Below, in pieces: positions 17,277-21,606 of a DNA stretch of 64,000 bases; the first letter of the stretch is position 1, and every line of letters begins with the position of its first letter. The position numbers were made by a program, and so were the translations under genes. The notes below the pieces were generated by a model. The model was not told the origin of the DNA. It saw only the letters and a list, made by a program, of their open reading frames with translations, and ran no database searches. The DNA is taken from NCBI GenBank assembly GCA_964016885.1, contig OZ024745.1:37758001-37822000 (forward strand). Reading direction: 5' to 3'. This DNA is from Eledone cirrhosa (taxonomy: Eukaryota).

Positions 17277-17677
17277 CATATATGTGAAGACAAACATAGA
17301 ATATTCGAAAATATTCTGTATGTTTACAATAAACATTTCGAAGACCCAATCGCTATAGAATAGAATACGTCACGTATTACAATTTGAGATTCTTTCAGAA
17401 GATCCCGTCAAGGGTGAAAGCAGCGATTCTTTGCTTAAACTTTAATCTGTTGTTTTAATAAATATATATATATATATATATAGTATGTATATATATATAT
17501 GTAATCCTGATGATTTCTAATAAGAATGAAACGCGTAGGTTACTTCCCTTGCTTTTATCGAGAATCTCAAATTGTAATACGTGACGTATTCTATTCTATA
17601 GCGATTGGGTCTTCGAAATGTTTATTATAAACATACAGAATATTTTCGAATATTCTATGTTTGTCTTCACATATATA
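17277..17677. repeat. ~117-bp inverted repeat enclosing a hammerhead and an HHR-like motif
   Basis: 17277-17393 is the reverse complement of 17561-17677. Confidence 0.9.
17501..17543 (+). ncRNA. Minimal type I hammerhead ribozyme
   Basis: gtaatc-CTGATGA-tttct aata agaat-GAAA-cgcg-TA-ggttac; palindromic stem III ACGCGU typical of Penelope HHRs. Confidence 0.85.
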
Positions 17678-17697
17678 TCGCTATTTCAGAGCATTAT

Positions 17698-20265
<2,568 letters not shown>

Positions 20266-20266
<1 letters not shown>

Positions 20267-20905
20267 TGAAACTAGTACAGCGTTCCTTTGTCAGTGTTGA
20301 ACAAACGAGCAACGATGGTTGCTAGACACTATGGCTTAATACGGGATGTTTGTTTACAAACAAACCGAGCATTTTAATAAATGTTCGGTGATTCCATACG
20401 TACATGTATATATGTGTGCATATATGTATATATATATACATACTACTGTACGTCTGTATACATATATGTATGTACGTGTACATACTAATATTTAAGTACA
20501 GCCGTACTAAGAGTGGGAAATGAAATTTCGTTTCACTTTTTCCGTTCATCGTTTTCTGTGCACCTGGCCGATTAACCCACTCGATATGCAAATTGGGCTA
20601 CTCAGCCGTTAATATTTCATAAGGTAAGTATATACGTTCAACAATCTGGCAGGAAGGTATACGTTGCTGACGATAGCTAATAAGCTTGAAACTAGTACAG
20701 CGTTCCTCTTTCAGTGTTGAACAAACGAGCAACGATGGTTGCTAGACACTACCGCTTAATACGGGATGTTTGTTTACAAACACACCGAGCATTATAATAA
20801 ATGTTCGGTGAATCCATACGTACATGTATATATGTGTGCATGTATGTATATATATATACATACTACTGTACGTCTGTATACATATATGTATGTACGTGTA
20901 CATAC
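20266..20905 (+). mobile_element. 1.5 x 420-bp retrozyme-like repeat, diverged relative of the 467-bp unit
   Basis: gaaactagtacagcgttcc at 20268 and 20688; collinear similarity to the reverse complement of the 467-bp unit. Confidence 0.85.
20661..20703 (+). ncRNA. Minimal type I hammerhead ribozyme
   Basis: acgttg-CTGACGA-tagct aata agctt-GAAA-ctag-TA-cagcgt. Confidence 0.88.
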
Positions 20906-21606
20906 TTATATATACTATATATATATATATATATATAAATGGCTTCTACGGGGCTAGAATTTTTTCAATCTAATGAAACAGTTCTAGACCTGTAGAAGCC
21001 ATCTCTATATTAAATATTTATACTCTACTATGTATTGAGTACCTTACTTACTGTGGTTATCCGCGATTAAACCCCCGATACCCACACACACACCAACACG
21101 CACACGCACACGTACACACACGCACACACATATTATAGAACTAATCCCACACGGTGTAGTAACTTATTTTATAGTTACAGTATTCTAATAATCGTTTCTA
21201 ATTTTGGCACAAAGCCAGAAATTTGAAGGGAAACGGAAAGTCTATTAGATCGACCTCAGTGCCTCACTGGTACTTTATTATATTTAATGAAAGGCAAAGC
21301 TAACCTTGACGAGATTTGAACTCAGTACCTACAGGACCCTAACTATGTGCCACAAAACATGTTTTCCGACACTGGCACCCCATCGCCGTCACAGTTATGT
21401 AATAAACTAAAATACCATACGATCATACTATAGAATAAATACCACATTATGTAACACTCTAACGTAAATACGACACTGTGACATACTTTGGTATAGCTAT
21501 TACACTATGTACTACTATAGCATTAACGTAGGATTTTATCAACGCACAGATAACGGTCTGGTGTAGTAAAATATAGTTATAAAATATGTAAGAAATTATT
21601 ACTTAC

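Follow-up and report, generated by a model that had tools for sequence, protein, structure and literature searches.

How did a 420-nucleotide repeat with a hammerhead ribozyme come to lie in this part of the Eledone cirrhosa genome, and how is it related to the 467-bp hammerhead array on the opposite strand nearby? Both occur in the 64,000-nucleotide stretch of DNA analysed here, which we call the window. A first-pass annotation had taken them for sisters in an old family of replicating non-coding RNAs kept by selection. On the evidence of sequence comparison, the insertion at 20267–20910 is a genuine member of a diverged sister subfamily of non-LTR retrozymes, with putative cleavage and expression. 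In the literature, cited throughout from the parts of each source available to us, the transcription and the copying agent of animal retrozymes are open questions, and non-LTR retrozymes seem to lack promoters and any motif pointing to a partner (PMC7761336). By itself the window copy is unremarkable, and its value lies in comparison across its family. This clan offers genomic footprints of Penelope-type integration, a candidate promoter and five versions showing which helices matter.

The copy in the window

Repeat comparison places the whole insertion at 20267–20910 on the plus strand, the strand of all features below unless another is given. It comprises 1.53 units of subfamily A, is truncated at the 5' side and stops at the short one of two fixed 3' ends. 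The direct repeat has a period of 420, with 219 of 229 positions identical between 20266–20685 and 20686–20914. Both ends of the insertion grade into (TA)n, the 5' junction lying within a (TA)n-rich microsatellite at 17703–20266. The first hammerhead (20267–20283) consists of a 3' half, with GAAA, the stem III palindrome, GUA and the 3' strand of stem I, and is without the stem I 5' strand, the core and stem II. One monomer extends from cut site to cut site (20278–20697, 420 nt).

The second hammerhead (20656–20706) is a complete, canonical type I ribozyme by sequence and stem comparison. It has a 6-bp stem I (acgttg at 20661–20666, cagcgt at 20698–20703), the core CUGACGA (20667–20673), a 4-bp stem II (agct at 20675–20678 and again at 20683–20686) with a U.U base, and a 2-bp stem III with a palindrome. 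The stem changes, core and GUA site described earlier are thus found at 20661–20703, and the predicted cut after 20697 agrees with the GUA triplet at 20695–20697. Around the ribozyme, an extended stem I rod spans 20636–20722, with substitutions private to the window copy at 20708 and 20710. The word atttcata is a variant form in this copy, most others having atatgcata. Neither a frame of at least 150 aa nor an ORF combining reverse transcriptase with GIY-YIG was seen in the window copy. Rfam gave it no hammerhead match at gathering scores, and in E-value mode returned only microsatellite-driven microRNA matches.

The 467-bp array, of sister subfamily D, occupies 8965–12011 on the minus strand. 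It has 6.5 units, stops at its own long 3' end and carries six ribozymes, two of them with a core substitution. As the annotation had it, the window copy amounts to about 1.5 units in the opposite orientation, and its motifs are collinear with those of the array in pairwise alignment. Homology is full-length, with 279 of 406 ungapped columns identical (69%) and a global alignment score of 137, against −57 ± 13 for 300 dinucleotide shuffles. Similarity outside the hammerhead, on which the proposed kinship depended, exceeds shuffled controls upstream of the ribozyme (z = 13.1; 0 of 1000 shuffles as high), downstream of it (z = 4.7; 1 of 1000) and in the microsatellite hairpin (z = 4.9; 0 of 1000). 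Core position 7 is C in the window copy and U in the 467-bp unit. We also observed that unit variants alternate along the array (stem II G-U-U or G-U-C).

The window copy is probably a dead end. Lacking the first promoter and the first half of a ribozyme, it could not yield a monomer from its own promoter. Its single complete ribozyme falls short of the two or more by which Li et al. define an 'active' element, a number that many other copies of the family have.

An apparent 1.3-kb tandem duplication (17673–19000 and 19001–20305) adjoins the insertion. The first 40 nt of the insertion are repeated at 18961–19000, and the 30 nt after this repeat are identical to those ahead of the microsatellite at about 17673. 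This may be a local duplication or an assembly artefact. About 200 N occur at 1496–1694 of the window, and neighbouring microsatellites may be imperfectly assembled.

Abundance and subfamilies

Across the 3.0-Gb genome the core pattern has 40,693 matches, compared with 43 for reversed controls. Subfamilies A and B together account for 25,847 motif matches, and a mostly-C pattern for 1,715, against 25 in controls. Rare variants of the pattern (L166, L177, L191–L193) look like chance matches. A DNA search of the genome with the unit returned 2,265 candidates, and among the 40 of these scored, full-unit matches are 90–96% identical on many contigs. We extracted 123 distinct cut-to-cut monomers of 368–580 nt.

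The monomers fall into subfamilies of about 420–433 nt (A, which includes the window copy), 456–538 nt (B), 404–509 nt (C) and 465–469 nt (D). Identity among representatives of A, B and C is about 81–89%, and between these and D it is 67–74%, divergence that bears out the description of the family as old. A fifth subfamily, E (431–438 nt; 3,020 candidates, 40 of them scored), is without the microsatellite hairpin, which in the window copy is found at 20396–20485 and again at 20816–20905, and has a 3-bp stem III with a tetraloop. It looks older, at 88–92% identity to the query, and in L124 and L203–L226 it carries three tandem octamer-like words that fold into a long hairpin. The longest arrays reach up to 31 units, with 31+1 motifs at G000:C1:5738327-5752443.

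These repeats share the features of non-LTR retrozymes. They are tandem units of a few hundred bases, each with a type I hammerhead of canonical geometry (6-bp helix I, 4-bp helix II, 1–2 bp helix III, palindromic loop), subfamily E differing in this respect. They are non-coding with a GC content below 50% (0.35–0.38 per unit), and no LTR-type structure was seen in the insertions read for their ends. A literature search found no paper on this clan; PMC7229834 and bioRxiv supplements may list related invertebrate repeats.

Compensatory change and folding

The two units of the window alone make a single comparison, and one comparison gives no significant test of covariation. We therefore compared 245 ribozymes of six lineages (A, B, C, D, D' and E), placing their stems at fixed offsets. 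Across these lineages 60 of 60 majority pairs in stems I and II are canonical, and changes on both sides occurred at 7 of the 10 positions. One double change lies inside subfamily E, where U-A occurs in 15 and G-C in 4 of 23 sequences. The basal pair of stem II varies, being U.U, C.A, G-C or A.A.

Evidence for the remainder of the unit is weaker. In a 13-sequence alignment of A–D, 30 named pairs, picked with the sequences already known, form in 94.9% of cells, as opposed to 36–51% for slid partners. Double changes are found in 11 of the 30, five of which lie outside the ribozyme; the total of 11 is not above column shuffles of the same alignment (137 of 500). Among the outer helices, a hairpin at 20728–20743 is retained in subfamily D with double changes (C-G to G-C and C-G to A-U), and two more hairpins at 20767–20808 have homologous positions across subfamilies. 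A strict blind column test, which took its pairs from a single subfamily and its alignment from sequence alone, was not significant either for the ribozyme (p 0.08–1.0) or outside it (p 0.08–0.29). A register-tolerant blind test outside the ribozyme, which allowed shifts of 2 nt and used 100 permutations for each comparison, was positive. Pairs of A were kept in D (44 of 73, null mean 10.7, p 0.01), those of D in A (59 of 103, null mean 16.4, p 0.02) and those of C in D' (36 of 72, null mean 11.2, p 0.01). Only five or six independent lineages underlie the covariation. We consider the ribozyme stems well supported and the outer helices moderately so. The claim that covariation backs the fold thus stands for the hammerhead, through its compensatory changes, and in part for the rest of the unit, where the register-tolerant test agrees with it and the strict test does not reach significance.

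Folded as circles, all seven monomers examined are far more stable than shuffles (z of −4.7 to −10.8; −6.2 against 40 shuffles for the window monomer), and the folds are branched. The ribozyme of the monomer is predicted to misfold via invariant bases, the CUG of the core pairing with the palindrome. This prediction fits cutting as a dimer and proves nothing.

Inserted copies tell us where selection may act. In 111 segments (L001–L030), distinct variants per site number 0.75 in the core, 1.21 in the stems and 1.12 elsewhere. Since the decay of inserted copies is fairly even, the source copies are the most plausible target of selection. Selection on the ribozyme and the rest of the unit, as first proposed, is consistent with the compensatory changes, and it seems to exclude the inserted copies, which are decaying unit-wide.

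Insertion ends

We distinguished 102 insertions, which comprise 52 inversions, 47 copies with a single arm and 3 complex cases. Leaving out the complex ones, 99 insertions provide 151 3' ends. The loci are top matches, not a random sample, and the end windows were defined after the data had been seen; within them, 124 of the 151 ends fall at two sites, 65 short and 59 long. The two sites are homologous across A–D, at +217 and +272 from the cut in A, +228 and +279 in C, +251 and +310 in B, and +229–234 and +303 in D. In the window copy they enclose a 55-nt 'tail' (20495–20549, from about +217 to +272), which contains a hairpin (20517–20534) and a T5 run (20537–20541).

The two ends are strikingly paired. 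Thirty-five inversions combine a short and a long end, one has two short ends and none has two long ends, so that 35 of the 36 inversions with both ends classifiable have one of each; the other 16 have an end at neither site. The flanks are (TA)n targets, in which a target-site duplication is unreadable. Opposite arms of one insertion are alike, with 1.2 differences per 165 nt in subfamily A versus 6.3 between insertions, and 2.3 versus 5.2 in subfamily D. The 5' ends are spread over the unit, with 3 of the 151 no more than 4 nt from the cut; since these data contain artefact clusters (D at −205, C near +100), we used the broad spread only. Given that the arms are alike and the 5' ends spread, it is likely that the arrays arose during insertion, by copying of a template spanning the ribozyme site. 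That template was likely a circle or an uncut multimer. No strand excess of A-to-G editing scars was seen among distinct site-variants in A, C, D and E, the comparison in A being 31 versus 33.

A one-sided tail, an inverted layout and (TA)n targets have all been described for Penelope-like elements in the available text of PMC8557442. The ends suggest that Penelope-type jumping genes insert the copies. Judged by these sequence footprints, the family works like a Penelope-dependent non-autonomous retroelement, that is, by retrotransposition.

Promoter-like motifs

Upstream of the ribozyme, all five subfamilies retain an octamer-like word that is also present at −77 to −79 in three U6 promoters and one U6atac promoter of the host. 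A matrix built from these four promoters, which were chosen after the motif had been seen, has its best plus-strand site at a homologous place in 8 of 8 units, with scores of 10.2–18.3 bits and p ≤ 0.013 in 7 of the 8. The true promoters score 13.6–19.2 bits when left out one at a time, ten U1/U2 upstream regions at most 6.5, and 19 other U6-type copies at most 8.6. In the window copy this PSE-like motif lies at 20585–20602 (13.5 bits; p 0.013). Scores above 12 bits occur at eight places in the 64-kb window, namely six D units, the window copy (20585) and one other, so that 7 of the 8 are within these hammerhead repeats. Host U1 and U2 promoters lack a match to the octamer-like word, and a matrix built from them was not above shuffles on the plus strand (p 0.05–0.99).

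A TATA-like box follows at 20629–20634, 44 nt past the PSE-like motif, with a predicted start at about 20659. The distance between the two motifs is 43–44 nt in A–D and 41 in E versus 47–49 in host U6/U6atac, placing the box of A–D 4–5 nt closer than at host spacing. Thirty nucleotides past the box there is a pyrimidine–purine step just before or inside the ribozyme rod (20659 in A). Runs of T4–T6 within the unit would terminate polymerase III transcription short of a complete monomer. The U6-like motif is a candidate internal promoter that would likely let copies switch themselves on, which we regard as a lead and not a proof.

Among the host snRNA promoters (L227–L256, L270), those of U1/U2 have TCAGT at −56 to −58 in common. 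U6 and U6atac promoters have the octamer-like PSE at −77 to −79 and a TATA box at −30, and both groups have a pyrimidine-rich word near −260. At L274 (G000:C19:7531494) a U6atac-like copy directly adjoins an inverted piece of the promoter-like region of subfamily E.

Search for a partner element

Intact Penelope-type ORFs are abundant in the genome. Unit homology was absent from the 3' UTRs of two Penelope families, both taken from the window (30 loci each, 60 in total), and no autonomous partner was found in these families or in the flanks of the loci read. Other Penelope families were represented by fragments, and Penelope fragments that adjoin units look like separate insertions into the same microsatellite. 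In the supplement of PMC8557442, as far as it was available, the core motif appears twice, both times apparently in coding sequence.

Discussion

The homology, copy number, compensatory stems, two fixed 3' ends, inverted two-armed insertions and PSE- and TATA-like motifs are all read from the sequences themselves. They make it probable, in our judgement, that the window holds a dispersed non-LTR retrozyme copy, likely written into (TA)n by a Penelope-like reverse transcriptase and endonuclease.

We suggest the following cycle. A U6-type promoter inside one unit of a source array would start RNA polymerase III just upstream of the ribozyme, and read-through would give multimers. The ribozymes would cut them, probably as dimers via the stem III palindrome; in Xenopus, according to the available part of 10.64898/2026.07.22.740005, 8 of 9 retrozyme dimers did not cleave in vitro. 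The monomers would probably be circularised. Penelope enzymes would prime at the two fixed sites, 51–74 nt apart, and copying would cross the ribozyme junction and stop at random, often proceeding from both sides of a break. Since only copyable RNAs would multiply, changes that keep the fold would survive. We offer tentatively, and with less than even confidence, the full version of this, a self-promoted clan that captured a U6-type promoter and whose polymerase III transcript is cut and circularised, with copying around the circle starting on both flanks of a Penelope-made break. If this is true, the five subfamilies would serve as a natural series of mutants that maps promoter, ribozyme rod and priming signal, and would answer two points left open by PMC7761336 in its available text, the promoter and the partner motif.

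Alternatively, the same Penelope enzymes may copy a linear multimer that is transcribed from a source array and left mostly uncut, the long 3' end lying near a polymerase III stop. A linear uncut multimer accounts for junction-crossing copies as well as a circle does, the ribozyme of the monomer is predicted to misfold, and long homogeneous source arrays such as the one with 31+1 motifs exist. In A, B, C and D, the long end has a T4–T6 run no more than about 12 nt away. Three observations speak against this reading: the long end of A, B and C falls 7–9 nt beyond a T5–T7 run; the predicted start shows no cluster of 5' ends, with 6 of 151 between −52 and −36; and in coral, mussel and axolotl retrozymes build up in circular form (PMC7229834, as available). 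We regard the linear template as possible, if somewhat unlikely.

Under a proposal in 10.64898/2026.07.22.740005, the units would be pseudo-LTRs orphaned from an autonomous Penelope-like element and later multiplied in place by unequal crossover. The tail, the inversions and the (TA)n targets are all characteristic of pseudo-LTRs, and in two old arrays (L008, L018) units differ from each other as much as from other loci. Yet in the loci read no unit is the terminal repeat of a Penelope ORF, nor is any Penelope ORF joined to a unit in that way, and the ribozyme geometry is canonical and not of the minimal Penelope type (PMC4209133, as available). Local crossover does not predict near-identical units in both arms or the pairing of short and long ends, and we consider this origin improbable.

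The 'replicating RNA' of the first-pass annotation, understood as RNA-to-RNA copying, finds no support in these data. A viroid-like RNA that is integrated only occasionally could draw on the circular folds, which beat shuffles in all seven units. However, scanning the unit's minus strand revealed no hammerhead, other ribozyme classes had no Rfam match, and the folds are branched, not rod-like. The copies form genomic subfamilies with retrotransposon ends, which indicate reverse transcription and integration, and we think viroid-like replication very improbable. A neutral satellite with a chance ribozyme-like motif, to which the partly microsatellite-like unit and its want of an Rfam hammerhead match might point, is refuted, as the annotation had held, by the compensatory stems and fixed ends, the excess of motifs over controls and homology above shuffles, and we give it almost no credence.

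Compared with other metazoan non-LTR retrozymes, returning to the reading of a Penelope-written copy that we prefer, the Eledone units share tandem non-coding organization, a length of a few hundred bases, low GC and one canonical type I hammerhead per unit, and sister families occur within one genome (PMC7229834, PMC7761336, 10.64898/2026.07.22.740005). The U.U at the base of stem II is shared with axolotl HHR_Amex2. In contrast to those retrozymes, as the available texts describe them, the Eledone units have a U6-like motif, two fixed 3' ends, inversions and a tail on one side; in those retrozymes both expression and cleavage have been demonstrated, and in the Eledone units both are putative.

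With EN+ Penelope-like elements and their pseudo-LTRs the units share partial tandems, an inverted 5'-truncated arm, a tail at one end and (TA)n targets (PMC8557442), and with Penelope-like hammerheads a palindromic stem III (PMC4209133). They differ in being without an ORF, in a hammerhead that is canonical rather than minimal, and in tails of 51–74 nt, compared with 30–40 bp in the available text of PMC8557442. No pseudo-LTR in common with the Eledone unit was found in the two families compared. Non-autonomous elements of Chlamys, such as MRC1, have a 3' end resembling that of autonomous partners; unlike the Eledone units, the group is described, in the available text, as being without canonical hammerheads (PMC8557442). 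Newt satellite 2 and Schistosoma Sm-alpha are cited as hammerhead repeats that have a promoter within the unit (PMC2220036, PMC6765202), and so are precedents for an internal promoter. The newt promoter is cited in the available sources as snRNA-type and transcribed by polymerase II; the Eledone motif matches the PSE of host U6/U6atac instead.

Other elements in the window and flanks

The 3' parts of two young Penelope-like families lie at 316–1326 and 2800–4920 of the window, both on the minus strand. Their relatives, at 95–99% identity, have open frames of 887 and 784 aa. Each family seems to terminate at either of two 3' ends in (TA)n, and the 3' UTR of the 887-aa one contains a degenerate hammerhead-like motif.

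Locus flanks (L004–L221, about 226 loci) contain about 25 more hammerhead motifs, which are of several designs and in many cases lie beside (TA)n; in L078 and L085 they stand ahead of Penelope-type frames. By eye, these other flank families look unrelated to the unit. A fold-back remnant at 20937–21005 resembles another hammerhead-tipped family with a long stem III, of which a member with an intact core is found near 15083 (minus strand). At 17490–17700 an inverted short element, also present in L020, holds another type I hammerhead, whose stem III palindrome is a different one and whose stem II has a U.U base.
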